Source: Halocafeteria seosinensis (lineage: Eukaryota). Taken from it: DNA of 44,102 nucleotides. This document shows, one piece after another, positions 62 through 35,600 of this stretch. The notes beneath the pieces are model-generated. The model did no database searches. It had not been told where the DNA came from and saw only the letters and a program-made list of their open reading frames with translations. Made by a program: the position numbers and the translations under genes. The stretch is taken from the NCBI GenBank assembly GCA_001687465.1, contig LVLI01000173.1, forward strand, positions 124,001-168,102, given 5' to 3'. The number at the start of each line of letters is the position of its first letter. The stretch's first letter is position 1.

Positions 62-3000
62 CTAGAAGTGCTGTCTCGAGCCCGCAGTTTTTCGCTTGGC
101 GCTCCTCTTTCGTCCGATGCGGCGAGCCGAATGCGAAGCCACAGGTCTTACGCTAGGGAGAGTTTGTGCAAATTCTTTCTTCTCCGATTTCGTTCGTTCC
201 AGGCGTCTACGTCGCGACTCGCTGTGGTACTTGGCCTCGTGGGACAAGCTAGCGCGTTTCTTGGCAAATTGTAGCTGCCGAGCGTGATCATTGGTTGCCA
301 TTGCGGAAAGAGGATTTGTAGTACCCCCATGAGAAAGGTTCGATTGCCCCTTGGCATTATCCACTTCCACTTCAACAAGTGGAGCCGGTTCTGCGAGAAG
401 TTTGGATTTCCACACTCGGAAATTGAGCAAGGTTTTACTCGAAGCTTTAAGCTCAGACGTATCGACATCAGTTGCCTTAGCTACTTGCGTAGGCTTATTT
501 TTCACCGAAGGGGGTTCATTGGTCGAGAGACGAGGCTGCTTTACTGACACGACGCGCACACTTTGTAGTTGAATGGGGGTTCGTTTCCCTACATCAACAA
601 ATTGCGCAGAACCTGCCCTTAGGAGCTGCTTGTCGCCACCCGAGTGCAGCGCTAACGGATTTCGAGTGGGGGTCGGATCTCTCTTCAGTTCCTTTCCGCT
701 CGAGCTATGTCCCGTCACCGTCGTATACAAAAACTCGCTTTCTGATATGCCTAGATTTTGAGCGTAAATTTGCAGCGGATCATCATACCGCTGCATACGC
801 TTCTTATTGCGCTTCCGCTTATATGCTAACAGGAAGACGGCCAGTATACAAAGAGTCAGAGCCACAATTCCAGGAATGATTGCTCCCACAATATCATTCA
901 CGCCTAGGTTACTTCCTGCGACAGCTGCTGCTGGATCTTCATCGTCTGGATTAGTGGAGCTCACTGTTGGAGAGGCTTGCAACTGATCTAACGAGGCGGA
1001 GGGTGTCTTCTTTGTCGACAATGGCGTGTGCTCTCCAGTTGCCGGCGATGTCGGAATGCTTCTGGAAGATGACCAAGTAGAAGAGGCTGGCGAAGACACG
1101 GTTGGGCTCACTGTTAAGAACAGAGGGCGACGTCCAGAAGCTGAAGGGGTCGACGTAACAGATACTGTCGGAAATGCGGTGACGGAAGACGTTACGGTGG
1201 TGCTGACAGAGTTTGAAGCGGAAGAAGTCGGAGTGGGAGATACCGAAGGTTTCGTAAGACCGCCCCCTTGAAAACGTAATATTGGAAGGCCGTCTTTTTC
1301 TCCAATCTTCCAAATGTCAGCATCCCACATTTTGGAACCATTGTAGTAGTATAGCTGGTTCATGATCTTATTCAAATCTCCAGAGTTACCAATGCTTGAA
1401 ATGCTAGAAGCCCCGCTTCCCACCATGACTCTATCTGTGGATACTGAGTACTTCACTGACACAGAATCAGCTTGCGGTGACACACCACCTATTATCCCGC
1501 CAGTGTCACCGAGTTCGGACGACGCATTTCCACTAGAATAAGTCTTTTCGATTTTAAGTGAACCTTCCCGGTATGCAGCATTGGAACCGCATATCCCACC
1601 AGCTTCGTTTGCTAGAATGTTGCCCCTCGCGTACGAATTAGCAATATAGACCGAACCTTTATTTCTCGCTGTATGTTGCCCAGCAAGACCTCCACCTGCC
1701 GTACCTGTGATATCTCCCATAGAGAAGCATTCAGAAACCCGCGTTTCTCCCTTTAAGAAAGCCGCACCGAAACCTAGAATCCCACCGCTTCCGTGACCAC
1801 CAATATCTCCCAAGGAATAGGAACGATGGACCTCGCATTTTCCGTCTTCTCCGCCACATCCTCCACCAATGAGGCCTCCAGAGCCATGTCCATCAATGCT
1901 TCCACTGGAACAGCAGCCGGTCACGTTTACAACTCCCCCAACTCGTCCTGCGAATACGCCGACGATTCCACCAGCAGTCTCTAATATTCTGCCAGTCGAA
2001 GAGCACTCAGAGATCATAACATGACCCCCTTCAAAACCACACTTTGCCCCACAGATTCCTCCTCCACCTTGACTATCAAGAAATATACCCGTCACGAGCC
2101 CTGTAGAACTGCAATGGTGAATTTGAGCAAAGCGTTGCTGTGGTTGGAGAATAAACCCGCCTTGAGGACTCGTTTCCCCGCCCTTCATGTGAACGCCGAC
2201 TACAACAGGGGAATGTCCAAGTGAAGAAATGCTCTTATTTCCACCTACAATGAATCCGCCGAAATTGGTGACTCCATCAAGGCGAATTTCGTAGTTGTTC
2301 CCGTCCAGCGTTTCTCCAGACATCAAGGACAGGAATGTTCGATTATCGTAGTAGTCCAACCAGGTAAAACTGCACCTCTGTTTGAACGTGGCAAGCGATT
2401 CCACAAACTCAAAACAGTCCTCTTTACCCTCGAGGATGGATAGTCGGAGATCATGGAATCTCAAGATGGGGGCATTCGTTATAGAGTGGACAAACCACGT
2501 ATCCTCTGACCACCTGACCTTATGGTTATATGTGTACAGTCTTCCAAGAATCTCGTCCAGATTTCCCGAGTTTCCAATACTGCTGGTAAGACGGTCTCCA
2601 TTTTGTCCAACTATTGCAGGTGGTGGTGGTGCGTCCACAGAGGACCCCACGGACACAGGCTGAACCGGCGAGGGGTTTCCACTAGGCCCAGCAAACACTG
2701 AATACGAAATGCTCACCCACTTAGGATTGGAGCCTATACTGGCAATGATTCCGCCCGCCCCCGCGGCAAAACTGATATCTCCACTTGCATACGTGCTTAC
2801 TATGGATATGTTCCCGCCTGAAGAAGCGGTCATTGCACCCGTTATTCCACCTCCTCTTCCTTTGACGTCTCCAACTGAGTAACAGTTTCTTAGAGACACT
2901 GTGCCTCCCCTACCTGCCGTCTGCATGCCTGTAATGCAACCAGCGCCATCAGAGACAACGTCTCCCTCCGAGTAAGATTCAACAATGGAGATTATTCCCC

Positions 3001-5240
3001 CATCTGGAGCAGTAGCACCAGCGGCAATGCCGCCTGCACCTTGTCCTTGCACGGTCCCTAGAGAATAGCACTTGTCAATATAAACGCTTCCACCTTTCAT
3101 TCCTGCTTCCGCAGCAAGAATACCTCCAGCAAATTGGCCTATAATTGTACCCGTCGATGAGCACCTAAATATCTCGGCGGAACCACCGTTAATTCCGAGT
3201 CTGCCTCCAACTATCCCACCTGCACCTGTCCCTGGGATATCTCCAGTTGTTCTTGATCGCGATATTTTAACGTTTCCCCGGTTCGCTGCACAAGCGAAAC
3301 CACATAATCCGCCACCACGGGCACCTCCATCGCCGCCTTGCAGTACTCCTTGAACGATTCCCGTAGAAGTGCAGAAATCGATCTTGAAAAACTTCTGCAT
3401 CGAGGTTACGATGAAGCCGCCACTTGCACTGGTTGTACCACCCCGCGTGTGAACGTTTACGATTAATGGCGCTTCATGGATGTCGCTGATTGAGTCCTCT
3501 TCAGCAACTACGAAGAGACCAGAAAACCCTCGGATACCACTCAAGTCTACAGTGTAGCCGTTACCGTTAAAGGTCTCGTTGGGTCTCAAGCTTATAAACG
3601 TACTACCCAATCTCCACGAGAGGTTGCATATTTGGCTGAAGGTCTTTTTGTCGTGACTATACTTGGTACATGCACTGTCTCCCTCCATGATGGTTAGGCG
3701 ACGGTCCTGAAATCTCAGAACAGGTGGATCATCCGAAGACCAAACAACCCACGTATTGTTGGACCACTTTTGCTCACCATTGTGCTGGTATAGCTGTCCT
3801 TTTATATCAGTAAGATTGTTGGAATTTCCTTCTAGTTCATCGATATTTTCCACTCCCTCGCCTACGATTCCATCTATCACCGGAGCCAGCGAGCGTACTC
3901 TTGTCGAGTCTTCAGAGCTCTCCTCATCTTCCAGAGCGAGTCTTCGCTGTAACATGGGGCGCCGACTTAGGGCAAGAGGTGGAGAATATACGGAGTATCG
4001 GATACTGACCCGGCTGTTCGAGTAGACCTGGCCGATGATGCCTCCCGCATCAGAATGCACTTCCCCACTCACATATGCATTAGTAACTGACACATTGGTC
4101 TTCCTTGGGTCTCCGTATGAGTTGTCAGTCCCAGCCACCCCCGCTATGCCTCCTGCTCCTTTTCCCTTTACTTGACCGGAGGAGTAGCAATTGAGTATGG
4201 AAATGGTGCCAGCTCCCGTTCCTGTTACTGATATTGCTCCTGCGATACCACCAGCATCTCTTCCTAGTATATCCCCCTTGTTGAACGAGCTGGTGATGGA
4301 GACGCTTCCACCATGTCTCCCTGGAGCAGCACCAGCAATGCCCCCAGCGCTCTGTTCTAGAATTGCCCCTAGAGCAGAGCATTGATGGACGGACACATGC
4401 CCGTTTTTCATACCACCTTCTCCCGCGAGTATACCACCAGCGTATGCCGCTTCAATAGTTCCCGCTGAAACGCAGCCACTTATTTCTGCTGTACCTCCTT
4501 CCAAGCCCAAGCGACCACCAGCAATTCCTCCGGCCCCAGGTCCTTTGATGACGCCATTGAAAGTCGTTCGGAATATCTGCACTTCTCCTCCATTCAACGC
4601 ACACATAAATCCGCATATCCCACCGCCACGTTTGCCGCTGTTATTTTGGATACTACCTTGGACGGTGCCTGACGCACTGCATGAGTCGACTTTAAAGAAC
4701 TTCTGCTCAGCCTGAACAATGAACCCACCTCTTGTGCTTGTTTCCCCGCCAGAAGTATGAACGTTATGAATGAAGGGAGACGAAGTAAAGTTGCTAACTC
4801 CTTCAACAATGAAGAGTCCTTGGAATCCAGAAATACCGGAAAGGTCAATGTTGTAATTGTTGCCGTCAAAGGTCTCATAAGCTTGCAATGTGATGAAATC
4901 TCCAAGCCTAACCCACGTTATGTCGCATAGTTGGTCAAACCGCTCCCAAACAGTGTTATAATGGATACATTCCACTTCTCCAAGAATTATAGAGCCCCTT
5001 AAATTACGTCTGGGAGGGGGACTACTGCTGGGAGAAACTGTGGGAGTTGGAGAAGGTGTAGGAGTTCTTGTAGGAACTGATACGTTCCCCATGCAAAATT
5101 CGGGACCGCTGTACTCCAAATAGTACTCCCGTTCCACAGTCTCAAATATAGGCTGATAGTCGGCTCCGCTTGGACACAGCTCTCTCTGGTTTCCCGGGTT
5201 ATTGTGTAATTCCCTGGACGAGAATGTAGACGGTGTCCAA

Positions 5241-5282
<42 letters not shown>

Positions 5283-8200
5283 ATGTATGGCACCGACTTA
5301 CACTTCAAAAAGATGATCAGGGGAAACTCCCACAAATACATTTTCCGGGAGAATTCGTAGCAAGTTGCTTGAGAGGATGCTGAAGCAAATGAAGAATATG
5401 CACGGACGGAACCGTTTCGATCAAATAAATTTGAGTACACATACATTCCATCAACGCGTTTAATTCCCTTAAATGCGTTTTCATCAATTACCCTTAACTG
5501 GTTTCCTTCCAAATCTCTGGTAGCTCAGATTCAAGGGTAAAACATTCGCTCGCAGCTGCGCTATGCTAAATCCCAACGTACATTAGCTCCATGGTCTCAG
5601 CATCGTCGAACAAGCCACCCGGTAGATGAACCAAATGATTCCGACTCAGGTCTCTGTAGCGGAACCAGGTATTAGTAGCGGTAGCGGGTCTCTGTGTGCA
5701 CTAAACGGCTTACATAAATTGAACGGATTCCAATCCTGCAAACGCGGCTACTGAAAGTGTCTGCAAACTATTGCCGTTAAGTCGTCTGCCAAGCGGTGGC
5801 ACCGGAAGAAGCATGTATTCAGTCAAAACAAAATTCCTGAATTGGAAGGAACTGCTTACATATCTCTGAGGCTTTCCGTATGTCTGAATCGACCACCGGG
5901 TAGATGCATCAAAGCATTGTGTGATAAATCCCTGAGACAGTCAGCAGTTTCCTAAGTTTTCCGAGCTTTTATCATGCAGATCAGGGTAGACTCACAGGTC
6001 ATGCAAGTTAGTCAGCCCCAAGAATGCATCTTCGGGCACATCGACAATTTCGCATTGTGACAATTCCCTGGAACACAGGTGTATAGTGAAGTACACTCTA
6101 CCACTTTTTTAATGCACTTCTAGACTCACAATCTCGATAACGAGTGCAAATGAACAAATGCTGCCCCGGGAAGCGATTCCAAATGATTTTGGCGGAGCTC
6201 TCTGAGGGTTCATGGCATAAAATGGCAGGCTTTCCTCCTTGTCAGGAATTGCGGAACTTGGAAGTCACTTACAGTGTATGGAGCCGGTTCAAACCAATGA
6301 ATGAGTCATTTGTGAACGTCTCCAGTGAATTTACCGAGAGATCGCTGTAGCAGAAGATTAAGTACATTGCTGGCTGCAATTTTTTCTTGCAACGAACACT
6401 TACAGATGATTCAGCGACCCCAATGAGTTGAAAACATTACTCTTCAGCATGGTGATGAGATTCCCCCTAAGGTGTCTGCAGCAAAAATATATTTTTGGAT
6501 CCACAAGGCAAATCCGAAAAGTTGCGATTCTACGCCTTACAGCCTACGTAACGATGCCAATCCTGCAAAAGTGTCCTTGTTGAGCTCTTCCAAGTTATTA
6601 TTTTCCAAGGATCTGCAAACAGCGACAGCATCGTCAGCATCGTCAGCAAGGCTCATGTGGCGTTCTACCAAGAGAGTCATTGTGGTTGCTACGTACAAAG
6701 TTCTAAGCAAGTGCAGGCCCTTAAATGTTTTCCCTTTCAGTTCTTGCAACTTGTTCCCATCCAAGGATCTGCTTTGACAAACAAAAGCGTGTTAACTTAT
6801 ACCCGTCTCAAGCCTCTGAAATTCACATACAGAGTGGTCAAGGAGTCCAGGGTTTCAAACAGCCCAGGTCCCACGGAGCTTAACTCGTTTCGCTCGACAT
6901 GGCTGCAGCCGGTAGTGCTATGAGCTTCATTCCACGAAGTCTAAAAGTACACCTGAATGACTTACAGATCTGTCAGAGATGACATGCAGTCAAATACTCC
7001 AGGCTTTAGAGTACTTATTTTGTTTCCACTTAGACGCCTGTTCCGCAGCAACAACGCATCAACAGAGTCATGAGGTTTGGTAGAGTAGTTCATGAGATAT
7101 TCCCATACAGGTTTGTTAGCGATTCCATACAGCCGAACACGGCAGGCTCCAAGGCGCTGATTTTGTTTCTTTCAACATGCCTGCAGTAGTGGTACAAAAT
7201 AGCATTCTTACATATTGTGGTTGCACCAGTCAAAGCTACGTACAAATTCCGCAGGGTTGAAAGATTTCTAAATATCCCCTCTTGTAAGCCTGTAAGAGGG
7301 TTGTTTTCCAACCGTCTGTGGAGAATAAGAAGGGCATTGAGTTCAGGAACTATGAGGCAACCATGAGTTTGGTGAACTTACAGGTACTCAAGACTTTGCA
7401 GGTATTCGAATATACCGTCTGGAAGTCTCGTTAGTGCAGTGTGCCTAATAGTTCTGGATAAGTAGCATAACGTTTTCTTTCTGCCAAACATGGCAACGGT
7501 CCCAGATACTGTAACAGTACTTACAGTCGCCGAAGGGATAATAGTCCCAAGAAAACGTCCGGGTCTAGTGTCTCCAGGCTGTTTGCTTGTAATTCCCTGT
7601 AGTAATAGGCAGTATACTTCTTGTAGCTGCTGGACTCCACACTAACTCCAGCTGAACTTTTTATTGCCTTACACCTTGTGCAAATTTGTCATGTCTCTGA
7701 AAAGCCCTCTTGGTAGACTTTTCAAGCGATTCCCCGAAAAAGTCCTGTAAAAACAGGGTAATCTAACATGCATGAACTCTTCCATTGCTGTGTACACTTA
7801 CAGTGATGATACTTGATGCTGCTTCAAGAAGGCATCAGGATGAACTCGCTCAAAATTCCCTGAGTAAACATTCCTGCGTGAGTCCAATGAGTTGTAACGC
7901 ACGGCTTCTTTAATGTATGTATGACGTGTAAATCACGTACACATTATTTTCGCAATTGAAACAAAACAGCAGCGTCGTTTTGCCCTCCTTTTCATCGCAA
8001 ATGCAGGTGCACGCATGAACCCCACAATTCGTTTCCGCAAGCGTTCCTATGCAAAACTGGTCGACGTCTGCTGCTGTCTCGTCCAACTTGTCGAAGGTAG
8101 TTTCTGGTGGGCAATATGCTGAGCTCTCCCCAGGATTGTTTATAAGTACTCTGCCCATGCGTTAGAGTAACTCTATTCGCACTCTAGACAGTATCTGTAC

Positions 8201-9914
8201 TTGATTCACTTACACGCTCTCCAGCTTTTCAAGGCCAGAGGTGAAATTGTGTGGAATGAAGAACAGCTTATTATGCTTCAGGCTCCTGGAAGAGGTTCAA
8301 CATCTCCCCGAGGAATATATCGAAATGGCATATCTATAGAGCACCAACAATACGTACAACCAGCGTAACTCATCGAGACCATCAAAGGAATCCTTGAAAA
8401 TCCTCCCGACATTACTGGAACTCAGGTCTCTGCACCAAGATGGTCCATGTATAAAGCTATGTCTCCGCTACACATGACCTGTCGACTTGATCGCTTACAA
8501 TTGCTTTAAATTCTTCAACGGAGTGAAAGAGGTCTTATGAATCGTCTTCAAATTATTTTCGGTCAAGTTCCTGCACGGCAAAGGTATTGAGTGGAATTGA
8601 ACGAGAATTTAGCAAGGCACAACACATCTTGTACCATACAGTGCTTCCAGAGAGGCCAGGGGCTGCAAGACATCCGCGTCCAGAGGCGTCGACATTGCAT
8701 TTGCTCCAAGGTCCCTGGAACAAATCCATTTCGATTACACAGAATCTAAAGTATTTTCGCTCTTCATAAAAGCTCACAGAAACCGCAGCGCAGCCAAGTT
8801 TTGAAAACTATTAGCAGACAGATGCTGAAGATGGTTTTCTCTGTAAATTCTGCGCCAGCGAGAGTCATTCCCCATACCGGCCACGCACAACAAGCATATA
8901 CGTAATGAAGGGGAGCTTACAAAGTCTTCAAATGTGTCAGTCCCTCAAACCAGTCGCTTTGTATACCTCTCAAGTCATTGTTGCTCAACTCACTGTGTGT
9001 ACAAGTTCAGGTACCAGCATAAGTTACTGCTTTCCCCGTGGTGTGGACACTTACAGCTTCTGAAGATTGGGAAAGTTAGTAAGCACACCATCAAGGTTAT
9101 GAAACTTGTTCCTCGAGAGATCTCTGGGACATTTTAAGAGTTAATTGCGACCGGTAATACCATAGAAGGTTATAAAGTTCTGTATCGAGGTGCTCGTACA
9201 GTTTTTCCAGGTCTTGTATACCATCAAATGTTTCATGATCAAGATCCCATGCTTCAAGGTTGTTGCCGGAAAGGTCTCTGAAACCCAGAATAGCATCAAG
9301 GAGAATATCTTACCATTCCCAAGAACTTAACGCCCACTTACAGTTTCTTTAACTGAGTCAACTCTTTGAATGGGCTTCCTGCTAGTGAGGATAGGTCATT
9401 GTCAGCCAAATTCCTGCATTGGACCCTTCATGACGGAACCAAAGGCTGATGACTGAGGAGAAAGGCCTTCCTTACAAGTCCACAGTATCTTTAACTTCAG
9501 AGAATGCGCCACGTTCGATACGCAAGATGCCTTGTCCACTCAAATCGCTGCACCCAGAAAAATATGGCAGACATATTGTCACCCCACGCCTCCGGATCAA
9601 ACTTACATTGTCCCAGAACATCCAGTACACTTCTTCAAGGTAACATCCTCTCTTTCTTCTGAGTTGCATGTACATGTACAATTCGCGCCTGATTTCTCCA
9701 CACATGAACTTCCGGATTGCAAGTGCCGTCTGACAGACCTCCGGAGATAGTTATGCTGGCCATTATCACCACCATTCGCCCCGACGCGCCCAACGGCGCA
9801 CGCAAGTATCCCTAGCAAACAAAATGCCTTTACGTGCGCCTTTGGAAATTTTGCCACCGCTGCTGAAGTGCAGCTGCTGGATAGACAGCTTCCTCTCTTG
9901 CGAGGACGAGTCAT
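62..9914 (-). CDS. 32-exon LRR + GLUG-like-module type-I membrane receptor/adhesin (~2589 aa): hydrophobic leader, Cys cap, 10 LRR, Cys cap/cap, 19 LRR, Cys cap, P/S/T linker, 3 GLUG-like modules, S/T stalk, TM, ~250-aa tail
   Basis: Hand-spliced exons: 9607-9914, 9476-9547, 9342-9413, 9200-9277, 9055-9123, 8921-8992, 8778-8849, 8640-8714, 8499-8570, 8358-8429, 8214-8285, 7941-8150, 7802-7873, 7673-7744, 7525-7596, 7382-7453, 7244-7315, 7109-7180, 6966-7037, 6831-6902, 6697-6768, 6541-6612, 6404-6475, 6273-6344, 6130-6201, 5996-6067, 5860-5931, 5714-5785, 5582-5653, 5445-5516, 5302-5379, 62-5213. All 31 introns are GT(AAG/ACG/ATG/GAG)...CAG, 57-88 nt, phase 2. The total of 7770 nt is open in frame. 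Exons translate as LRRs (e.g. DLSRNHLVHLPGGLFDDAETMELI). The TM segment IVGAIIPGIVALTLCILAVFLLAY is followed by KRKRNKKR. Confidence 0.9.
5244..5278. repeat. (GA)17 microsatellite in the last intron (5214-5301) of the LRR gene
   Basis: Perfect GA run read directly. It produces the artefactual LSLSLS in the ORF track. Confidence 0.95.
5302..7873 (-). repeat. LRR block 2: 19 single-repeat exons (18x72 nt, 1x78 nt)
   Basis: For example 6130-6201 ELRQNHLESLPGAAFVHLHSLSRL and 5302-5379 ILSSNLLRILPENVFVGVSPDHLFEV. Exon+intron period is ~130-165 nt. Confidence 0.92.
8214..9547 (-). repeat. LRR block 1: 10 single-repeat exons (7x72, 78, 69, 75 nt)
   Basis: Each exon encodes xLxxNxLxxLxxxxFxxLxxLxxL, e.g. 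8921-8992 ELSNNDLRGIQSDWFEGLTHLKTL. Canonical splice sites flank every exon. Confidence 0.9.
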
Positions 9915-11269: not shown

Positions 11270-11530
11270 TTTAGTACAATGTACAATATAATAACAGTCT
11301 CAAACTGCTGGTTACCTGTTCCGTTGGATAGGCACGATAATCCGAAGAGGGAATGGTCACGGTCCTAATGCACGTTTCGGATTCAATCAGGCCGAGACAC
11401 GAGAACCGACTGGTATCCCGGAGGCTAAAGGCTGTTTGCGCATTCCCTGAGCATGTACTGGATGGCATACCCTCCTCATCTCCATAATAACCTGCAGGAC
11501 AAATCTGGCGTATTCCGTTTTGACAGTGGT
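11270..11530 (-). pseudogene. Decayed fragment of a Cys-rich repeat protein (GCC2/GCC3 / ephrin-receptor-like type), copy 1
   Basis: Minus strand reads HCQNGIRQICPAGYYGDEEGMPSSTCSG and then frameshifts. It is a direct repeat of ~12150-12405 (shared cataccctcctcatctccataata, tggcgtattccgttttgacagt, tacaatgtaca). Confidence 0.6.
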
Positions 11531-12149: not shown

Positions 12150-12436
12150 AACTTCTACAATGTACACTAGAATAACAGCAGCCCATATGTGCTCATGCTG
12201 GCGCTAAATAGGGACAGTAAACCTGAGAGAAGAATATTCGCCATGTATATGCACGCTTCATCCAGGCGGAGAAGACTACCGGCTGGTAGATCTTGGAGGG
12301 CACAGGCTGTTTGCACATTATTCCCGAACATGTACGGACATCATACCCTCCTCATCTCCATAATAGCCTGCAGGAAAACCTGGCGTATTCCGTTTTGACA
12401 GTAGTATCCCCTTGGACACTTGCGTTGCTCGGTACG
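12150..12436 (-). pseudogene. Decayed fragment of a Cys-rich repeat protein, copy 2
   Basis: With ~3 frameshifts repaired it reads RTEQRKCPRGYYCQNGIRQV[C]PAGYYGDEEGMMS.TCSGICANSLCPPRSTSR, followed by a stop. Confidence 0.6.
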
Positions 12437-17974: not shown

Positions 17975-18824
17975 TTCAAAAGCGGTGGATCGAACTTCGA
18001 AGCTGGATATTCGATCTTGCTGTCAACGAAGGATATTCAGAATTCCAGGTTTGATGACGCCTCGACCGCAGGGTCAAATTCGGTGGTGAAACTTATCACA
18101 CCCTCTAAAATTTTAGTGATTCTTTGTAAGTGGCGTTTATGGCACCCAATGGAGCTGCTGGTTCTGAGTTGGAACCGAAGAACGTCCCTCTGGAGAAATC
18201 CAGCAGTATCTCTGACTCACAAGGATTCTACAAGAGTTGCATACGAAAGGATGTTGTCTTCTCCGGTAGAATTGTGCTATAGCTACCAGAACACACGCAA
18301 TCAAACCGTTCTGATGGAGTTCATAGGCTAGTAGAATCATAGCCCGGAAAGAATGGACCTCGCGATGCGATCATCAGGGCCTTTGTTGCGATCCCCGCCC
18401 AGTTGCTCAACCGAAATCTAGGATATCCGTCGCTTGGGTCCAGGGGAAAGAAATTTCGAAGTGTATCAAGCAATGCAGGGTGAGAAAACAGTGTATGCGG
18501 TTCGGCTATTCAATCAGTGTGTAGTGAAGAGCTTATGGGACAATTGAGGAATCATTCATACCAGTTCGCACCACCAACGACCCCAAACACTTCCTCTCAG
18601 GAGCCATATGCCACAACATGCAATGTGGTGTACATGCCATTTCAAAACTGCTCATTTCAGTGTTGGCAGCTTCTCGGTAATCATTCATCATTGCTCCCTT
18701 GCTAGTGGTGAAAAAGGAGTTCCAGGAGCTCGAGGTGGAACTTCAGGAGTTACTCAGCTGGGCAACCGAGGTACCGCTTAAGTCCTCCGGGTCAACCAAA
18801 TTCCCTGAGCAAATCATTGGTGCA

Positions 18825-20619: not shown

Positions 20620-21220
20620 TGTGGATGGAATAACGGGATTCCCGAGTGGGCCGAGAGTGGGATAGAAAGCTACCAGTATACAACGTTCTGCCTCTTCTTA
20701 CGACATTCTCCTGTGGGAAACTATCACTTAATATTTCCTTATTCAGTTAAGCCTACAAGCAAAGAATATACTATCCATCAACACGAAGAAATCTTACACT
20801 TCTTGTGTTGAGTCAACCACGGGCTAGAATTGAACTCGTCTCCATAGGAATTGAATTTTGGGATTTACCCCTCAGTTTTTGCAGGATCATCGCTTCACAA
20901 CACTGGACATTTTTTGGACCAGGAGAAGTAAAAGTAACAAATATTATTAAGGTGCGTCCAGAAGCGACTCCTGTACAAATTGTACAGTACAATGTACATT
21001 ACTGGCGCGCGGGCAGCGGAAGCGGGATGTTGAAGTCACGTATGCATACACAAGCCCTGCTACCTAACTCAGGATCGTTGCATTGGCACTCGGAGTGAAT
21101 GTATGTCTTTGTGTACTTCGCTTGGAAACAAGAATCGAAAAAAAGCAGCAGATAGACAAGTCGTTGCGTGCCGGTTGGCATCATCCATCTCTTTTGTAGT
21201 TTTTTCTCCAGGGTGGTACA

Positions 21221-21232: not shown

Positions 21233-21462
21233 CAAGCGAAAAGGCATTTTTACAAGTCAACATTAGCCAACCAGACTCTTTTTGTCGACGGAGGAACCTA
21301 CAGGGTAAAGTGTCTAGGAGCTAAAACACGGAATCCTCGTGCAGAAAAAGTGCTGCTGGTCACGTACAACGTGCTACATGGCATGATGACCGCATTTCGC
21401 CTTAATTTACACTGTGAAAGCAGCACTGGTGCCAACAATGTACTGTAGAGAAAACCACAAGC

Positions 21463-23892
21463 ATGGTCTACTGGATTATGACAGGTCAGCTTCTTCGGAT
21501 GTTGGGGAATCTTCTTTTCATTATGGGGGGATCCTCCCCGAAGATGCGAATGTCAAAACATGTCGATTCACAGACTCCGCACCACCAGCAGAAACAGCAA
21601 CGTAGACTCCCTGTCGATACAGTGGAACCAAAGGACGAAAAGCCAGAGACAGACTCAAAGATACCACAAGCGTATCCTGGATTGAGTAACAAGGAAGACG
21701 AGGAGGAAGACCAGCAGCGGCAAACTCTTAGTGGCGCGCCCCAGTTCTCATCTGAACAGAGGCTCTGGGCAGGAATTGTGCATCATATACTTTGTACACT
21801 ATTCCAAGCACTTCTACCTGTTTGCACAGCCGATGCTATGTTCACCCGCGAAGTCATTGGACACAGGACAAAGACCAGAGTATGCCGAAGGAGAGCTGCA
21901 TATACTAAGGAAACATTGTCGAAGTACTTGACTGGAGCTTTGGTTTTAGTAGCAAATTGTGGCATCCATGCAATGGACCTGCGGGATTCAATTCAAAAGG
22001 AAGGAGAAAGCTGTTTCAAGTATATCGCAACCAAGAGTTTATTCGAGTTGAATTGCACTCTATTGAATTGGCAAATTGCTGGGTATAGCACTGATCATTA
22101 CATTACACTCAAAGCAAACGAAACATTTGATGGGAAAGACAATGAAATTGAGCTCGTGGGTACTGGTGCATTTGAGGGACTCTTCGTGGTAGATTCAAAT
22201 GTTTCGTCCCTGGAAGAAGCTCCAGTCATTCGGAATGTCCATGTAAAGAACGGCGAGACAGCAGAGGATGGAGGGTTCATCGTTCGGTCAAATCAGAGAT
22301 TTTTCGCTGTGGATTCATGTAGCTCTTCAGGAGTAATACATAAAGGTGGAGGTGGAATATGTGGGAGATTGTGCGGTAAAGCAAGGGGTCATATTCTGAT
22401 TTCTGGGTGCAACTCGACAGGCGTTATCAGAGGCAATGATGCCGGTGGGATTTCGGGGGACCATATCGCAGCGACAGACGGTAGAGCAAGAATCGTAGGT
22501 TGTCATTCAGCCGGGAAAGTCGAAGGAAACAACGCAGGGGGTATTGTAGGTAGCAGCGTCGCTTGGCACCATGGTATGGTAGACGTTGTCGAGTGTTTTT
22601 CTACGGGAGACATCGATGGAGCGCGTTCAGGTGGCATTGCGGGTGCTTATGTAGCCCGTGAGGGAGGTAGAGCCAGCATGACTGGTTGCTATTCGACCGG
22701 AGAAATCCGACGAGCCTATTCAGGAGGCATTGCTGGCCACTCTGCAGGCGGTTATAACGGGATATTAACGATTCAGCGATGCCACTCTGAAGGAGATATT
22801 ACAGGAAATTTGGCTGGAGGAATTACAGGGACAGAGGTTGGTACCAATGCTGGACTCGTTACAATACGACGATGCTATTCTAGCGGACAAATCGCGGGAA
22901 GCAAGGCAGGTGGCATCACGGGATCAGAGACCTCAAACTATAATGGGTACACGACAATAGAGCAATGTTACTCTTCAGGAAACATTGATGGTTTTAGCAG
23001 CGGAGGCATATCTGGCTATGCTGCTGGCGAGGATAACGGCAAAGTGGAAATAAGAAATTGCTATTCTACTGGAGGGATCAATGGATCGCATGCCGGGGGT
23101 ATTTGCGGCGGTGGAACGGGACGTGAACGTTGTAATGACTGTAATGGTGGACGGGTCTTTATCACCAATACATATGCGTCTGGTACCATCAAAGATGACG
23201 CCGGCGGAATCCTAGGAGGTATCAGTCCAGAGGCACAAACTGTCGAAGTAAAATACTCTGTGTACGATGGTGTTTCAGGTGATATGGTGGGAGCAGGAGG
23301 AGGATCGGTCAACGATACAGTCCACATCAATAATTCCGATGACTTGAACGACATAAAAGGAAAATTATATCTGCAGGGCGAGAGCAACCACTGGTCGAGT
23401 GATACATGGATTGTAGGACAAAACAATGGATTGCCAAAACTCCGAGTCCGTGCAATAATCACTCCTACGAGCTCTTCGTCTCCGACAACGAGTCCTACCG
23501 AATGGACAACACCAACATCGTCACTAACCACTTCGCCGTTTCCTTCGGAAACTCCTAGCAGCACGCAAACGCTGACCCCGACAGGAACGCCATCTCAATC
23601 GATGACACCAACACCGACATTAACCTCTTCATCGTCTTCTTCAAAAACTCCCACTTGTACGCAAACGTCCACGCCGACTATGACGCAATCTCTAGCGAGG
23701 ACATCAACACAGTCACCAACCTGTTCTTCATCTGCTTCAGAAACTCCTAGCACGCAAACGTCCACGCAGAGGATGACGCGGTCTCGCGTGCGCGCTACAA
23801 AGAGGCTACCAATGCAACGACCTGGAAGGATCTCTACTAGTGGCCATAATGCCAGAGGCAGGACGTCAAAACACAAGCGCCCCGGGATCTAG
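21463..23892 (+). CDS. Single-module GLUG-like Gly-rich protein with S/T/P mucin-like tail and basic C-terminus (up to 809 aa, start uncertain)
   Basis: Intronless ORF with the same module as its neighbours (MDLRDS...CF.Y...ITLKANETFDG...FEGLF...EAPVIRNVH...GGFIVR...; ~26-aa repeats CYSTGxIxxxxAGGIxG; KW...W...LPxLR end). Two hydrophobic segments precede the module. There is no C-terminal TM helix. Confidence 0.88.
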   Translation: MVYWIMTGQLLRMLGNLLFIMGGSSPKMRMSKHVDSQTPHHQQKQQRRLPVDTVEPKDEKPETDSKIPQAYPGLSNKEDEEEDQQRQTLSGAPQFSSEQRLWAGIVHHILCTLFQALLPVCTADAMFTREVIGHRTKTRVCRRRAAYTKETLSKYLTGALVLVANCGIHAMDLRDSIQKEGESCFKYIATKSLFELNCTLLNWQIAGYSTDHYITLKANETFDGKDNEIELVGTGAFEGLFVVDSNVSSLEEAPVIRNVHVKNGETAEDGGFIVRSNQRFFAVDSCSSSGVIHKGGGGICGRLCGKARGHILISGCNSTGVIRGNDAGGISGDHIAATDGRARIVGCHSAGKVEGNNAGGIVGSSVAWHHGMVDVVECFSTGDIDGARSGGIAGAYVAREGGRASMTGCYSTGEIRRAYSGGIAGHSAGGYNGILTIQRCHSEGDITGNLAGGITGTEVGTNAGLVTIRRCYSSGQIAGSKAGGITGSETSNYNGYTTIEQCYSSGNIDGFSSGGISGYAAGEDNGKVEIRNCYSTGGINGSHAGGICGGGTGRERCNDCNGGRVFITNTYASGTIKDDAGGILGGISPEAQTVEVKYSVYDGVSGDMVGAGGGSVNDTVHINNSDDLNDIKGKLYLQGESNHWSSDTWIVGQNNGLPKLRVRAIITPTSSSSPTTSPTEWTTPTSSLTTSPFPSETPSSTQTLTPTGTPSQSMTPTPTLTSSSSSSKTPTCTQTSTPTMTQSLARTSTQSPTCSSSASETPSTQTSTQRMTRSRVRATKRLPMQRPGRISTSGHNARGRTSKHKRPGI

Positions 23893-24614: not shown

Positions 24615-24760
24615 AGAGATCTCTACCGGTGCAACGACCTGGAGGGCTGTCTAAGCAAGGTCATGATGCTAACGGCAGGAAATCAAAGCCCAGTCGTCCC
24701 AGCATTTAGTTGAAACTCCCTGAAGACCGTAACTGAGAAGCGTATGGAGAACAGAAAGTC
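24615..24760 (+). pseudogene. Relic of the 3' end of a paralogue of the 21463-23892 gene
   Basis: Encodes LPVQRPGGLSKQGHDANGRKSKPSRPSI*, versus LPMQRPGRISTSGHNARGRTSKHKRPGI* at 23806-23892. Confidence 0.75.
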
Positions 24761-26632: not shown

Positions 26633-29600
26633 TCACTTCCTTCTTGCCCTTCTCCCTTTTCTAACGCTTCTCAAGTTTACTGGTGTAGATGAGGGGGCGT
26701 TCGTGTCGCCAGGTTCCACGGGCTCTGAAGAATCATCTTTCGTATTTCCAGGGCCAGAAGGCAGCGTTTGTGCAAATTCCTTTTTAGCACCTCGTCCTTT
26801 GTTCAATCCTTTATGGGAATTGTACCGCTCGTGCTTTGCCTCTGCTGAAATCGAACTTCTTATGCTTCCTCGCTTCCTCGCATATTGTAATTGGGGTAAC
26901 CCGGCTGCCGCTGCTACTGCTTGATTCCGCTTTGTTTCTCCATCTTCATCATTGTTAACCTTTACCTCTACTAACGGCGGAGGTTCTGCCAATAGCCTTG
27001 CCTTCCACTGCCGAAGTTTGAGCTTCATTCTATCGGCTGTTCGCATATCGGATTTATCAATGGAACTTGCTAAGGCAACTTGCACAGTGCAATTTCCACT
27101 AACGGATTTTCTTCCTTCGCCTACGTTGGGTTTGTTGATTGATACGACTTTTACCTTGCTGGCCGGGGACGCATACGTTTCCAAATCCACAAACATCACC
27201 TGAGGGATCGTCGAATCATCAACCGTCGCGGCAGCCCCCAATTCCGGGTCATCCGCTGAAGTGTTTCCGGTGCTTATCTGCGAAGAACTAACGTATTCAA
27301 CTATCCTTGCTTTTAAGGTCTGTTCTTGGGCTTTACTCGTTGCTTGAGTTCGCTTCCTATCTCGGTCCATCTCCACAGACGGCAAAGCGCGACTTGAGGA
27401 GGACGAGAGCGGATTGAGATGGGCTACATTCTCCTCTCCTGTAATGTTCTTAGTCCGTACTGCAGACTGCTGTCCCTGGATCAAGGAGCCGGTGTTGCTT
27501 TTCCTAGTCCCTACACTCGAACTGCTCGAAACTGCGCTTTGTCCAATTGCCGATGGACGGGCGTCCATATCTCCAGAAGAGACAGTGAACTTAGATGTAG
27601 GGATACCTAGTTGAGTGGCATATAGTTCTGAGGGATCCCTAAACTTCTTCGAGAGAGTTTGGTTACGAGTGCGTCGGTAGCCAATGAATAGGAACAGCAG
27701 TAAAATAAATCCAGCGATCAGCGAGGGGGCTAGTATTGCCGAAACGGTAGATTGGGGGTCAGCTGCAGACCTCTCCTGTCCAAGCGAAGTACCCCCATCT
27801 GAGGATTCGTTGGCCATCGTAGAAGACACGGTAGATGTCGCCGAACTTATGCCTACGGTCGAAATAGGAGTAGCTGAGATCATTCTCTTAGTGACAGGTG
27901 TACCTGATGACGAAACCATCGCAGTAATTGTCGTTGCCGGAAAAGAGGCACTCGGTGAAATGGACGGAGATGAAGACTGGCTCGGACGCGGAACAGGCTG
28001 CTTTCCTTCGAAGGCCAATGCAGGTGGTTCATCGTACTGGTGTACAGTCCAAATATCTTCAGACCAACTCCAGAGATTATCATGGACGTAAAGCTGGCCT
28101 GTAATGTCTTCCAGATTTGGCGAGTTGCCTCTCTCAATTAAAATTGTCTGATTCGCCACCTCACAACTTGGCGTCCTCCTGTTTTCCCCTCGATACACCG
28201 AAAACTTCAGCTCCACCAAGTTAGGTTCAGTGAACTGACTGTCGAAGACGGACTTCATCGGCACTGCAACAGTTCCAAATACAGGTCCAGAATGAATATC
28301 GGGATAGCCTGATGAATAAACATTACGAACTGTAACATTTCCTCCATGGAGACCTGTACCCCACCCACAAATTCCTCCAGCGGCTTCACCAACAGTACAT
28401 CCTGTAGTATAGCTGTTCACGATAATCAGGTGTCCATATCTCCGGGCAGCCGAGCTACCAGCAATCCCACCACTAAAAAGCCCGCTGATATTCCCATTTG
28501 TATAGCACTGAGATATGTACACCGAACCGTGGTCAAACGCAGACCGTGGTCCAACTATTCCGCCACCCGAGACAGACTTCACTTCTCCTTCCGAGAACGA
28601 CTGAAATACGCGTACCAACCCTTTGTTGGCACCAGCTAGACTACCGCAAATTCCGCCTGCATTTTCCCCATGGATCGTCCCTGTTGAGGAACAACTATTC
28701 ACGTCAGCAAAGCCTCCGTCTTCCGCAGTCCGTCGACCAAATATTCCTCCACCACGAGCACCAATTGTCCCAGTTGAGGACGAATTTACAACCTGCACGT
28801 GCCCTCCTTTTCCTCCGGCATTTTCGCCGCATATACCCCCAGCGCGACGAGCTATATATCCTGTAGAGCTGGAATTCTCAATGACGAAATTGCCTGGACC
28901 GCCTTGGACAATGAACCCGCCTCCAGAAGATGTCCCTCCGTTCTTCATATGCACATTTTGCACTGTTATGGTTCCGTAGCCGTTGTTGGTGTTAGAATCC
29001 CCCGAATTCTCCAACTGGCGGATTGATAAAGACGAACGTGGAACCTCAACACTGTTACTGGTATCACCACCAATTAAACCTGAAAACTCAAACACACTCC
29101 TCATGTCCATTTCATAGTCATTTCCCTCGAATGTTTCGTTCTTCCTCAAAGATATGTAAGCCTCGTTGTCGTAAACGTCCCTCCATCGAAATGAGCACGT
29201 CAGCACAAATAGCATTTCCTCAGGGAGATGAGAAATGCATCCTTCCTTTCCCTGATGTGTTATCATTTGTCGACGGTCACCGGTCAATAGAGGTCTCCCG
29301 CAGCTAGTGTTATATTCCTCTTTCTCAAACTTTAAAATCGGTAAACTATCGCCTTCTTTATGCCAAGTATCATTCGACCATTTTGCCACTATTCCACCAG
29401 GAATATTGAGACTATCATTCACGGCAGACAGCCCGTCGGAGTTTTCTAGTTGAACAAATTTCCCAGTTATGTTTGCATCGGCAACTGGTGGCGCACAGTA
29501 TAAAGAGTTCCTAATCTGGATGGACCTACCAACACTAACACCCAAGAAGCCAACGAGCCCACCACTGCTATTGCCTTCTGTTTTTCCAGATGCGTAACTA

Positions 29601-32600
29601 TTCAAAATAAGAACCTGTCCTCCATGGCTAGCCGTTTGTGCTCCAGAGATTCCTCCTGCTTCATCACCCGAGATGATACCGGTTGTATAGCAATCTAATA
29701 TGCTGCCGACACCGTGATAAGATCCTAAGTCCCCACCACATATCCCACCGCTTCCCTGTCCCTTTATGGCTCCCGCAGAGAACGAAGCTAAAACAACGAC
29801 TGTCCCATTGTCTGAAGCCGCTCGCTTGCCTAAAATGCCACCCGCTTGGGAACCTAGAATGTCCCCTCCGTCTTCTCCACTGTAACAATTCTCAATGTCG
29901 ATACGACCTCGGTGAGCTCCAGCTTCCCTACCAACTATCCCTCCTGCTCCATCACCTGTAATGTTACCGAACGAGGTGGATTTGCGAATAACAACGTGCC
30001 CTCCATAGCTTCCACATTTTGATCCACAAATCCCTCCACCTCCCGGATAGTTGACTCCACCAATGGTCCCTCTCGAACCACAACACTCAATTACAGCAAA
30101 CATTTGATTCTTTCGAAGAATGAACCCTCCGTCCGTATTTGTGGCACCGCCGACAGTTCCAACATTCCTAATAATTGGCGCTTCGTCAAACGACGTCACG
30201 CTTTCACGATCCACCGAAAATATGCCGTTGAATTGTTTGCTGTCACTAAGATGGATTAGATAGTTGTTTCCCTCAAATATCTCATATGCTTTCAACGAAA
30301 GATACATGCTTCCGCTATAGTACCTTCCCCATTCGAAATCGCAAGTCAATTGAAACCTCCTTATAGCATGCTCATACGTTATACACTCCGATATTTCAGT
30401 TCCATCCAAGACTGAGGTCCGCAGATCTTGTCGAACTTGGGGCCACTCGTCTCGGGATAAATGAGAAAGAGATGAGTTGGCGGATTCCCCGATTTGGTAA
30501 CGCAAATATGGGAACTCACCCGCGGACCCGGCAACCCAGATGGTCTCAGACCATCTATATTCAGACGCCGCAGACGATACGTTGTACAATTGCCCTCTAA
30601 TTGAACTCAACTGATCTGAATTACCCGTCGCAGTAATGTTTTGAAACCCCTCTGAGAATAAAGGAGGCAGCGCAACCGCTAACTTGATGTTAACCGAATC
30701 AATTGCTTCCCACATGATCCCTGCGGCGCCGTCCACGATACTTCCAGAAGCATAAGCCCGCTCTATCGAGACTAAACCAGTCTTTTTGCCAAGGATACCC
30801 CCTGATTTCCAACCACTGATTTCTCCACGTGAGTACGAGTCTGCGATTGTAGTGCCAGGGTTCGTACCCGTACCCGTCTTTTGACCTCCTATCCCACCAC
30901 TCTCACTTCCAATATTACCCAGAGAAAAACATTCCGATATCTCTACGGAGCCCGATGCTTGTCCAATGATTCCGCCGCTGCCACCGTCTTCTATAGCGCC
31001 TGTCGAGTACGATTTTGAAATCGCTACCTTCCCTTTGAACGAACGACCAGCCCGCGCACCGACTATGCCTCCTGCTCCATCACCTCCTATTTTCCCAGTC
31101 GAGTAGCAGTTGGACAACACAGCTTTACTTGGTCGATAATCAAACTCACCACCAGTGGTATTACACCCAGCGATTCCACCCCCCAAACGATCTATCGTAC
31201 CGGAGGAGCTACATGAATCAACTGTAAAATTGGTTTGACCTTTACGTACGATAAACCCGCCGCCGGGAACCGTCTTGCCACCGTCAGTATGTAAGTTGAT
31301 GATGCGCGGTGCCTCACTAAACCGATGAATTCCCCAATTACTGATTGCAAACAATCCTCTGAAGGTTTTTATAGTCCAAAGATTAATGCGATGATTATTT
31401 CCATCAAAGACTTCTCCAGGAGCGAGAGTAATGTATGCCTTCCCTTGATTGTATTCTCGCCACACAAGGTTCTCGCAAACCAGTTGAAACAATAGTTTAC
31501 TACCATTGTAGTGAATGCACTCATCGTCGTTGTCTCGAAAAGAGTCAGCCATATCCCGAGCCTCATCTGCGGATACGCTTTGTTGTTGTACCAGTTCTCG
31601 AGATACCGGCGGATGCCGTGCCGACGCACACTCCAAACGAGACTTCCGATCCAACAGCGGACGTAGAGTGGGCAACTCCCGATCCTGAAATGACAGGATA
31701 GGAGGCTCGTCCATTACACACTGCCAAATAGCGCTAGACCATTGTACGTTCTCTCCAAATTGATACAGACGACTATCAATATCATCTAGATCATCTGAAT
31801 TGCCTTCGGAGACAGTAATCAGCTCCCCCGTGCTTTGGCCAGAAATGGGTGGAGAAGAGACGGAGTACTTGATTTCTACATGCTCTGCTGGCCTCCATAT
31901 GTTAAGCCCATCGGATACTGTCGCCAACATTCCACCACTTCGATCTTCTTCTTTGACCATGCCAGAAGCGTAACTCGTGTGGATCAGTAGCCTGCCTCCA
32001 TCGATTCCAGCGCGATGCCCGCAGAGACCACCGGCTTCCTTTCCCAATATATCACCACGTGAATAGGAATTGCGAATTTCCACGCTTCCACCGTTCGCTC
32101 CTGTATCAGCTCCACAGATGCCCCCACCTCCTCTACACTTAATGCTACCTTCCGAGTACGCTTGCGAAACCGTTACACTCCCGCGCTCCAGCCCGGCGTT
32201 GTCGCCGACAATACCGCCACTGGAAGTTCCTTCGATGTTTCCTAGTGAAGCCGAACGAAAGATACACACGCTTCCTTTTGATTTACCGGTATCACTTCCC
32301 GCGATACCACCTGCTTTGTAGCCTTGAACGTGGCCATTCGACATAGAGTTTGAGAGTCCTTCTAGACCATCTTCGTGAGTAGAGGACGCCAGAGGCTCCG
32401 CAGGGGCGTCACATGGAGACGAAGAACTCATACTAACGGTACCTCTTGTGGGTGACCGCATGGCACCCGAAACTATACCGACGCCATTCTCAGAGGCAAA
32501 ATCACTACCCACAATCCCTCCGGCATGATCTCCCGTGATCTCTCCGAACGAAGAGCACGTCATGATTTGAACGTGTCCTCTTGAGCCACATTTATACCCG

Positions 32601-35600
32601 CATATACCACCGGCACCCCAACCGTTAATAGCCCCAGTTGAACTACAACCGAAGACTATCGCATACTGCGTTTCTTCCCTCAGTATGAAACCACCTGTAT
32701 CGGCAACGATACCATTTACTGTTGCAACATCTCGGACCATAGGAGCCTTGTCAATGGAGTCAACCGACCGGTCGATGGCAAACAGCCCCGCAAATTCCGA
32801 CGTTGCCGACAGATTGATGACACTATGCCCACCATCAATTGTCTCATCAGCGCGCAGTGAAATATATGCATCATCAGTGTAATTTGAATCCTTCCAGTGA
32901 CAGTCCATTTTCAAAACGATTACAGCCTCAAGGTTTTCTATTTTTTCCCCCGAACACTTCCTGTATTCGAAGCACGGATCCCTTCCGGCAATTACTGAAG
33001 CCCTTCTGTCCCCTGTTCTTGCCTGAAACCAAAAGATTGGCGGCTCTGTGTTCCTATGCATCCAAACGTCACTAGGCCAACGAGATACGCCATTCAATTT
33101 GTATAGCTTTCCTTGAATCATGCTTACATTACGTGCAAGACCTACAATCCGCGGGGAGGACCCAAATCCCACAACCGGTTGAGACCATGAAACCGAGTAT
33201 TTCAGCTCAACGTCCGGGGAGCCAGTTTCCATACTACCTAGAATTCCACCACCAACTTTTTCATACATATCTCCCGAAGCATAACAATTTGTGATGGACA
33301 CGCTACCATTCCAAACCGCAGTGTAGCCTCCGAGTATACCACCTGAATAGTCTCCCTTAATATCACCTGTAGTGTAACTGTTCCGAACCCCTAGCATGCC
33401 ATCAGAGGATGCCGCGAACGAACCACTGATGCCGCCACTCCTATCACCGATAGCATAGCCAATTGTATAGCACTGCTCAATTTGTGCTGTGCCATTCTTC
33501 GCCGCAAACGAACCACATACTCCTCCAGCACCACCACCTTTTATCCTTCCACTGGAAGATGACCGGCTTATTGCAGCATAGCCTCCCCAGGCGCTTGGTT
33601 CCGAACCAGTTATGCCACCAGCTCCGTCCCCTTCAATTGCTCCAGTGGAAATGGAGTCAAGAATTTCGATATGTCCTCCACTAGATCCACACCTACGACC
33701 ACATAGTCCACCGCTGTTAGTGCCTGCACTAGTTCCCGAAGAGCTGCATGATTCCATTCTGAAAAATCTCTGCCAGCTTCGCACGAGAAACGACCCATTA
33801 TCCCCCGTTTGTCCATCTCTTGTATGGACGTTTCGAATAATCGGTGCTTCTCTGACAGACGAAACGCTGCTATTTACAACAAATATCCCTTCGAATCCAT
33901 CAACACATTGGAGAGCAATTTCGTAACCCCCGCCATCGAACGCCTCACCAGCATTCAGCGTAATGAATGAGCTCGGATCGAAATAATCACTCCAGAGGAA
34001 GCTGCAAGTTTGCTCAAACGTGTATGTAGATATATTGTACATTAAACAAGGCACAATACCCTCATCGTTTACGAATGAACGAATGTCGCTCCGGTAATGA
34101 GTTCTCGACAAACTGTTTGGTTGTGGGTCACCACTGGAGACATTATGCTTCTGAAACTGTAGCTCAGGAAACCTGTCGTTTGTAGGAACCATCCAAATAT
34201 TATCACTCCATCGTTGAAGACCGAATGAGTGCAGCAAAGATCCTTGAATGGCATTCAATGAATCTGCGTTCCCTATCGAGCAGGAGATGTAAGCAGCATT
34301 ATTTCCAATAAGTTTTTCTGGGGATGGCGCGGAAAACCTAATGTATATCTGCGGATGAGATATCTCTATAGGACTATCTGTGCGTTCCAATCTCCGGGCT
34401 GGCGGATCTTGTCTTTCCCCACTCGAATACACATTTTCGATCTGTATAATGCCACCGGACATACCCGGATTTGCACCGCAAATTCCTCCTACGTCTCCCC
34501 ACAGTAAATCTCCGGTACTATAACAGTCTTTTATGCTCACAGTTCCTCCGTTACTTCCACACGAACTCCCGCATATCCCACCTCCGTCGGCTTGTATCAT
34601 CCCTGTGGAATAACATTCCCAAACAAATACTAACCCCTCGTCGGAGGCGGCCAGTTTTCCCAAAATGCCGCCACTTCCTGGGCATCCAATATTGCCCCTT
34701 GAAAAGGAACGAATTACTTCTAACCTCCCTCGATTGGATGCTGCTTTCTGGCCAACTATTCCACCGGATCCTTTACCGTTGACCTGTCCATGTGAAAATG
34801 AATTGGTAATCTTGACGCGTCCCCCGCCATGTCCGCAGTTTGCTCCACAGATCCCACCTCCTCCATCAGTTATTTCACCGGTAGACGAGCAAGACAAAAT
34901 TTTCCCAAACGTTTGCCCATTACGCAGAATATAGCCAGCTTGAGGTTCGATACTGCCGTGCTCCAGGTGGACGTTGCGTATTAGTGGGGCTTCCTCGAAA
35001 GACGTCACATGTTGACCCACCTCAAAGAGTCCTTTAAATGCATCAGTACGCTCCAGATCAATAATGTAGTCATTTCCCTCGAAAGTCTCATTCAATGTCA
35101 ATTGAATGTAATCATCGCTGGTGTACCCGAATGCACTCCAAGAGAAATCGCACTGGAGCAAGAACATCTTTTCACCAGGATCGAAAACAATGCAGGAAGA
35201 GTTGTTCGCAAGTACGACTTCGCGTAAGTCTCGGGAGCATACAGACTGGTATGAACTCGTCAAAACAGCAAGAAAACAGATATGAATAGACGATGCCGGG
35301 TGTTTGAAGAGCGGCTTCCTTTGCCTCTGACGTTTAGTCGTCGCCTTTATGAGATCTGACAAGAGTATGGTGACAAGAGCAGACAAAAATAGGACACGTT
35401 TCCAGCCACTCGGGTTTTTATATCCACCCGCATCATGCTCCAGTGAGCCCTCTTGCTCTACTTTACTGACGTCGTTTCTTCCGGCAGGATCAATAGTGCT
35501 AACACAGGTGCTTCGTCTCGTAGCACTTGTCCTAAGTGAATCGTATGTGAGGCAAGACGCGATGCTCTCATGTTTTCTGAATAACTGCCTGTCGTGCGGG

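Follow-up and report, generated by a model that had tools for sequence, protein, structure and literature searches.

Why should membrane proteins with quite different outer parts carry the same cytoplasmic tail? The question is raised by a 44,102-nucleotide stretch of DNA (positions 124,001 to 168,102 of contig LVLI01000173.1, here called the window), which is eukaryotic, has ~48% GC and holds five open reading frames (ORFs) of more than 500 amino acids (aa). Three ORFs on its minus strand, G1 (62-5524), A (26633-36076) and B (36702-44102, open at the window end), share a layout of a Ser/Thr-rich stalk, then one transmembrane (TM) helix, then a tail, with a 19-residue strongly hydrophobic segment (Kyte-Doolittle 2.7-2.8) N-terminal to the tail in each. 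We propose that this tail is a conserved module which, under many unrelated outer parts, would act as a non-catalytic docking platform for one shared machinery of the cell cortex; adhesion and uptake would be its most likely uses, and we give this reading an even chance. That the family is real and under selection we regard as practically certain.

Seven short motifs had been listed for each of the three tails in an initial annotation of this DNA, and all 21 were found in the order given, on the minus strand and C-terminal to one hydrophobic segment, as was the basic C-terminal end of each (the window tails are net basic). The span given for the G1 tail, 62-820, was correctly placed but missed the first Tyr codon, the tail being 62-823, and within the shared motif listed as LQFAKKR, LQYARKR and CQYGTKK the last, from B, is a degenerate copy (identity to the family 0.05). 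By BLASTP the tails of G1 and A matched with E=3e-25 (38.6% identity over 140 columns), those of G1 and B with 8e-17 and those of A and B with 2e-101 (48.7% over 355), while tblastn found no fourth tail in the window (next match E=0.17). Outside the window there are 66 relatives (18 from three word-based searches and 48 new among the 64 matches that HMMER gave from 1.84 billion representatives with a cut-off of E 0.001), and scans of metagenome, viral and prokaryotic genome contigs gave none. Sources were shown for 38 of the 66, namely 22 from one EukProt transcriptome (GECG01, presumably Halocafeteria seosinensis, a halophilic bicosoecid stramenopile), 15 from ENA assemblies and one from IMG, with none from NCBI or UniRef, and judged by these searches the family is restricted to a narrow protist lineage, in a narrow set of sources so far. 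All 39 relatives with sequence ahead of the tail have a TM helix there (hydropathy at least 1.6), followed by a basic exit, and 29 of 33 have an S/T-rich stalk; with a large N-terminal outer part this is the topology of type I single-pass proteins. Tail length across the family is 197-376 aa, and no window tail exceeds ~41% identity to the full-length tail of a relative. Three relatives (P0049, P0005 and P0066) keep the juxtamembrane motif and lack the core or break off in it, being fragments, frameshifts or truncated variants.

The motifs proved to be better conserved than their flanks, by ~3.5 times across 16 outside relatives (of the 18 then known, P0005 was dropped as a truncated fragment and P0011 as nearly a duplicate). 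In the motifs of G1, A and B the window residue was matched with an identity of 0.55, 0.58 and 0.51, compared to 0.16, 0.15 and 0.13 in the rest, and no circular shift of the motif mask reached the observed gap (0/252, 0/347 and 0/348 respectively). As the relatives were gathered with tail profiles, a cleaner test is provided by the two N-terminal motifs, which were present in 13 of the 13 proteins first found with profile A3, a profile that lacked those motifs. A and B are tandem neighbours with outer parts that are 96% identical, and so the likeness of tails might be a leftover of recent duplications without special meaning; this has almost no chance of being correct and is refuted both by the synonymous sites of the A and B tails, which are near saturation (dS ~1.75) while dN/dS is 0.20, and by the persistence of the motifs at 20-40% overall identity in two separate expansions. 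The starred branch of the tail tree (96/89) splits the window and transcriptome members (15 rows) from the ENA-type members (16 rows), which indicates that there were at least two such expansions.

The tail had been pictured initially as short motifs set in low-complexity, poorly conserved filler. This stands for the outer linkers as regards their variable length (28-147, 18-79, 20-67 and 20-69 residues, i.e. two- to five-fold variation), and even these are 43-47% identical between A and B with a dN/dS of 0.16-0.24. It had to be abandoned for the middle of the tail, where three motifs and the sequence between them make up one block of ~82 residues, the core, with nearly fixed spacing, a conserved hydrophobic pattern and a predicted fold. 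Median spacings between FVD, VVS, A115, W138 and V150 are 18, 22, 23 and 12 (49-63 rows; interquartile 18, 21-24, 23 and 12), with W138 to V150 being 12 in 63 of 63 rows. Conserved residues (G1 tail numbering, 56 rows with a mean identity of 37%) are P97 and S93 (56), R136 and K139 (55), A115 (54), E145 (52) and D121, R130 and L135 (45 each), P97, A115, D121, R130, L135 and R136 falling between the VVS and WK motifs where poor conservation had been expected, and ~19 columns are 95-100% hydrophobic with the residue itself varying. AlphaFold2 gave the 95-residue G1 core (63 sequences) a pLDDT of 82.6 and a pTM of 0.69 (pLDDT of the five models 78.7-82.6), predicting three short strands, a 16-residue helix that is basic and bears the Trp, an EPPP turn and a fourth strand; for the whole G1 tail (20 sequences) pLDDT was 91-97 at residues 111-150, 85-93 at 1-30 and below 50 in the linkers. 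From these models the core probably folds on its own.

None of the three window tails matched a Pfam family, even with E allowed up to 10, or came near the cut-off of an NCBIfam family, in agreement with the earlier statement that the tail has no kinase, TIR or other catalytic domain. A PDB sequence search with the tail had a best E of 0.022; later PDB profile matches lay on stalk and TM columns brought in by full-length rows, not on the tail, and were rejected. Foldseek at E 0.001 gave no match for whole tail or core in the PDB and none among viral models, VIA-align against 48,161 chains reached a best Z of 2.6 for the whole tail (all on the C-terminal helix) and found one chain at Z of at least 2 for the core (8k98_C, Z 2.5, rmsd 3.5, 51 aligned), and the ESM Atlas held no usable match for core or tail; these nulls show neither a new fold nor a difference from known folds. 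The near-invariant polar residues S93, R136, K139, E145 and D121 might be those of a small unrecognised enzyme or of a nucleotide- or lipid-binding domain, but a length of ~82 residues with no conserved His, Cys or Gly-rich loop, and with no catalytic family match, makes this very unlikely, and the tail would very probably act by docking rather than catalysis.

A different use of the core would be self-assembly of the kind known from TIR and death domains, in which receptors cluster, the cores polymerise and an effector is recruited. A small non-catalytic core under leucine-rich repeat (LRR), Cys-rich and lectin-like (PA14) outer parts, which are immune-like sensor types, would suit such a role, and its predicted strands are hydrophobic on both faces, which suggests that one face is covered by a partner or by another copy. 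We nevertheless consider it rather improbable, since the core has no sequence match to the TIR, death or SEFIR families, lies behind a TM helix in 39 of 39 sufficiently complete matches, and has not been recognised in a soluble adaptor among the 66 relatives, many of the short ones being fragments.

Exchange of outer parts could not be shown from the window alone because G1, A and B all carry a GLUG-like unit, G1 merely adding LRRs, and it is across the family that the initially proposed shared, undescribed tail with interchangeable ectodomains is borne out, both in the lack of any Pfam, NCBIfam or PDB sequence match and in the unrelated outer parts. The units are Gly-rich, 350-480 residues long with an inner period of 31 residues, and number three in G1, six in A and at least five in B; we call them GLUG-like because a profile of nine units matches PDB 3n6z (E=4.9e-11 over 200 positions), which we take to be a putative IgA1 protease from Bacteroides with a beta-helix fold, and because Pfam Glug was matched weakly (E=0.01, one of nine units; none in whole-protein scans). 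Searching with tail profiles and listing the attached ectodomains, as had been suggested, showed at least seven unrelated kinds of outer part among the 66 relatives. GLUG-like is the commonest; the others are Cys-rich and ephrin-receptor/TNFR-like (P0009, P0011, P0038, P0052), PA14 (P0018), Gly_rich_2 (P0048) and three unrecognised kinds (P0024, P0040, P0042), and none of 10 non-GLUG proteins matches the GLUG-like unit. On a tree of the 31 rows with a labelled outer part (LG+G4; two long branches present) the eight states need eight changes (minimum 7), and nine on a 55-row quick tree. P0040 sits among GLUG-type members in the tail tree (98/95), and the AU test rejects both a single Cys-rich clade (p=0.0002) and a single GLUG clade (p=4e-56); on these alignments, the tail tree rejects grouping by outer part.

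The A/B pair shows such an exchange at closer range. Positions 27897-34075 (A) and 37927-44102 (B) are 95.9% identical in DNA, with dS of 0.054 over 1964 outer-part codons, whereas stalk, TM helix and tail are ~50% identical in protein, with dS of 1-3 from where the last unit ends and a sharp boundary near that point. On this sequence comparison the tails of A and B are likely an old pair and the outer part a recent copy, made by gene conversion (with this stretch as its tract) or unequal crossing-over. Exon shuffling at the membrane is not the mechanism of exchange, as no intron interrupts the part that runs from the units through stalk and TM helix to the tail; for the LRR block of G1, with its intron after each repeat, we infer that it was joined on upstream. 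The plus strand at 24623-24743 and 25933-26038 holds relics of the 3' end of the tail-less paralogue G3, remnants of other such paralogues whose basic end is conserved (24623-24706 matches the last 28 residues of G3, E=1.5e-7). The G3 unit had no relative in viral contigs; phages gave one weak match, and so did plasmids.

That these are real, spliced genes is shown by assembled contigs. Those of X2 and X3, which come from one sample without a record as RNA (all the runs belong to a single study), skip nine predicted GT..AG introns of G1 exactly, and the joint of the LRR exons with the tail exon (5212-5301) was seen in one X2 contig, at a depth of 3.2 with 29 letters on the short side (tool mark 31). 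Contigs of X1 (which may be the window's own source), X2 and X4 run over tails A and B with no differences and reach into the nearly identical outer tracts by 196 and 317 bases; as they span both tail/outer-part junctions, which tail goes with which outer part is not an artefact of assembly there. By eye, G1 likely starts at the ATG at 9914, and signal-like starts are seen in G1 and in relatives P0002, P0009, P0024, P0040 and P0042. The open leaders of A (35200-36076, minus strand) and G3 (21418-21970, plus strand) are 190-290 residues long, contain at least two signal-like hydrophobic segments and have no Met just before the last of these, the transcript-derived P0006 being alike.

Outside the core, the motifs YAxxLG, NPL, QLxF and KKEF float in variable linkers. 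Among the 44 tails that begin at the membrane, YAxx[LFIM]G is found in 32 and NP[LVMI] in 43, the latter with 55 copies compared to 6.5 expected and with two or three copies in 10 tails, and by this recurrence NPL acts like a short linear motif. In the same tails NPF, DPF/W, RVxF and PPxY were not enriched, SxIP (21 vs 13, shuffle maximum 23) and RxLxF (8 vs 3.2, maximum 9) stayed within the shuffle range, and the IQ consensus occurred in none. It could be asked whether the tail is an address label only, bringing many cargoes to one place (a surface patch, the flagellar membrane or a secretory organelle) with no signal, as it is common to unrelated outer parts, has extra NPL copies in 10 of the 44 tails as sorting signals do, and has a paralogue, G3, without it. 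This we think unlikely, as a tail of 197-376 residues, with its predicted folded core and its seven blocks in order, is far larger than known sorting signals need to be, and known sorting motifs are not enriched. Similarly, the conserved YxRxxN at the membrane exit and the basic C-terminal ends, present in the three window tails and in 18 of the 44 (at least five K/R in the last 15 residues), might be read as a tail that is cut at the membrane and enters the nucleus by Notch-type regulated proteolysis. That is a highly improbable reading, as the basic end is absent from 26 of the 44, the tails match no DNA-binding or ankyrin-like family in Pfam, and a basic membrane exit is ordinary for type I proteins.

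The docking reading would work as follows. The core would be a fixed anchor, with S93, R136, W138, K139 and E145 as candidate contact residues, and the juxtamembrane YAxxLG helix, NPL (one to three copies) and the QLxF and KKEF patches would be short docking sites on flexible linkers. Together they would dock one cytoplasmic machinery and thereby give every outer part that the tail carries the same output. The tail would be held constant while gene conversion or recombination upstream of the TM helix creates new binding specificities. With heads of adhesin-like, lectin-like and LRR type on a glycosylated stalk, adhesion and uptake are suggested by analogy; whether the tail serves these (e.g. 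uptake of prey), and not only localisation or transcriptional signalling, seems to us evenly balanced. More tentatively, the core may be a new signalling or anchoring domain with its own fold and the family a repertoire of modular receptors in one lineage of free-living protists, with dozens of sensors whose outer parts are diversified by continuing exchange and gene conversion and which all report to a single intracellular hub of their own; the receptor logic of immune or prey recognition would then have been invented here independently.

Several points weigh against docking for adhesion and uptake. The argument for this role is one of architecture and analogy, the signalling or trafficking function initially proposed for the tail is likewise putative, and classical uptake signals are not enriched in the 44 tails (YxxPhi 28 vs 45 expected, [DE]xxxL[LI] 7 vs 10.9 and NPxY/F 0 vs 1). 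Gathering relatives by tail profiles favours conserved cores, and the dN/dS of 0.08 for the motifs of A and B, compared to 0.22 for other codons, is partly circular because the motifs had been picked from these same sequences. The models were judged on confidence and secondary structure rather than on contacts, compactness or strand order; with a moderate pTM, a short first strand and confidence that peaks on the helix, the core may fold only on a partner. The ENA proteins have the look of gene calls made without regard to introns; they may therefore lack exons at their upstream end, and the labels of some outer parts may be wrong. Finally, PMC6701047 reports that replacing the tails in Trichomonas vaginalis left endoplasmic reticulum/Golgi localisation unaltered, so that the analogy with Trichomonas does not prove function.

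Coordinates of the tail-bearing genes and their parts in the window
Feature	Position	Strand	Basis
G1 cytoplasmic tail, 253 aa plus stop	62..823	-	Covered by contigs X1, X2, X3
G1 KKEF motif	152..181	-	F218 in 94% of 54 rows
G1 LQFA motif	254..274	-	F186 in 81% of 57 rows
G1 conserved core, ~82 aa, predicted beta-beta-beta-alpha-beta	362..607	-	Spacing, conservation, model
G1 NPL motif in variable linker	653..661	-	Second copy at 308-316
G1 juxtamembrane motif DPxxxYAxxLG, predicted helix	746..781	-	Y20 in 96% of 47 rows; helix 16-23 in model
G1 TM helix	824..889	-	Hydropathy 2.81
G1 Ser/Thr/Pro-rich stalk	890..1270	-	Best 60 aa are 53% S+T
G1 three GLUG-like Gly-rich units, 350-430 aa each, 31-residue inner period, without introns	1271..4990	-	
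G1 intron between last LRR exon and unit-stalk-TM-tail exon, in frame	5214..5301	-	GT..AG; one X2 contig joint
G1 at least 24 LRR exons, 69-78 nt, one repeat each, same phase	5302..9413	-	Nine predicted introns skipped in X2/X3 contigs
G3, one GLUG-like unit and stalk, without TM helix or tail; likely secreted paralogue	21418..23892	+	
Copy A cytoplasmic tail, 348 aa; core 26957-27199	26633..27679	-	X1, X2, X4 contigs, 0 differences
Copy A TM helix	27683..27739	-	Hydropathy 2.73
Copy A six GLUG-like units	28010..35203	-	Unit search
Copy B cytoplasmic tail, 349 aa; core 37035-37271	36702..37751	-	X1, X2, X4 contigs, 0 differences
Copy B TM helix	37752..37808	-	Hydropathy 2.72
Copy B at least five GLUG-like units, open at window end	38037..44102	-	

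The LRR exons of G1 (5302-9413, minus strand) form two blocks with Cys-rich caps near 7940-8150 between them, and the rest of the gene has no introns. Between this gene and the ORF that follows lies a 150-base non-coding direct repeat, 80% identical (11382-11530 and 12257-12405). That ORF (12845-18022, minus strand) encodes 1725 aa with two tandem copies of a helical-repeat, a coiled-coil and a conserved C-terminal block, and ends in an acidic linker and a PH-like part which seemingly continues over an intron; it had no Pfam match above the cut-off and no PDB sequence match, and it may resemble VEPH1/Melted. Three adjacent frames at 18825-20697 (minus strand) make up an apparent transporter, presumably of the MFS/SLC22 type by its motifs, and a scrap at 26101-26200 is 74% identical to its 5' part.

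The molecular basis of prey recognition and engulfment, surface adhesion and virus sensing in free-living flagellates is little understood. In that setting the tail would be useful as a tag which collects the whole receptor repertoire, including the unrecognised outer parts of P0024, P0040 and P0042, and as one bait for the machinery behind that repertoire, while the A/B pair gives a worked example of repertoire change, with an outer part exchanged at a sharp boundary. The design principle is already known from parasites and the limit here is the narrow set of sources. The cytoplasmic module is apparently undescribed so far: targeted literature searches (bicosoecid and Halocafeteria surface proteins, eukaryotic GLUG beta-helix, NPL tails, protist shared tails) found no paper on this tail, and the available parts of PMC5447177 and bioRxiv 10.64898/2026.06.25.734631 note many duplicated genes and do not mention the family, which the duplicated-gene lists in their supplements may include.

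How, then, does the family compare with known systems? Likeness to GLUG beta-helix proteins (3n6z) is confined to the outer unit, which here is stacked one to six times on a stalk, TM helix and tail. In PfEMP1 (its acidic terminal segment), cadherins and integrin-beta, a conserved, non-catalytic and partly disordered tail docks cytoskeletal adaptors under a variable or modular adhesive outer part; unlike these, the present tail has no Pfam match, is basic, has an NPL without the Tyr of NPxY (0/44) and stands under wholly unrelated outer parts. Toll-like receptors, LRR receptor kinases and TNF receptors join an LRR or Cys-rich outer part through one TM helix to a shared inner domain, but the tail described here has no TIR, kinase or death-domain sequence match. 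According to PMC2843621 and PMC6701047, subfamilies of Trichomonas vaginalis BspA/Pmp proteins share TM helix and tail, with NPxY-like or dileucine signals. As described there, these too are an expanded protist family in which the outer parts are built of repeats like those of prokaryotes (LRR, beta-helix adhesin type) and sit on one TM helix; a tail can be common to different outer parts, and some members have no TM helix. Their tails carry NPxY/F, dileucine and acidic-cluster signals, whereas the tail here is basic, 197-376 aa long and has a predicted folded core, and no homology is claimed; because those tail signals are missing, we do not regard the family as a member of BspA/Pmp but as one that has the same design.

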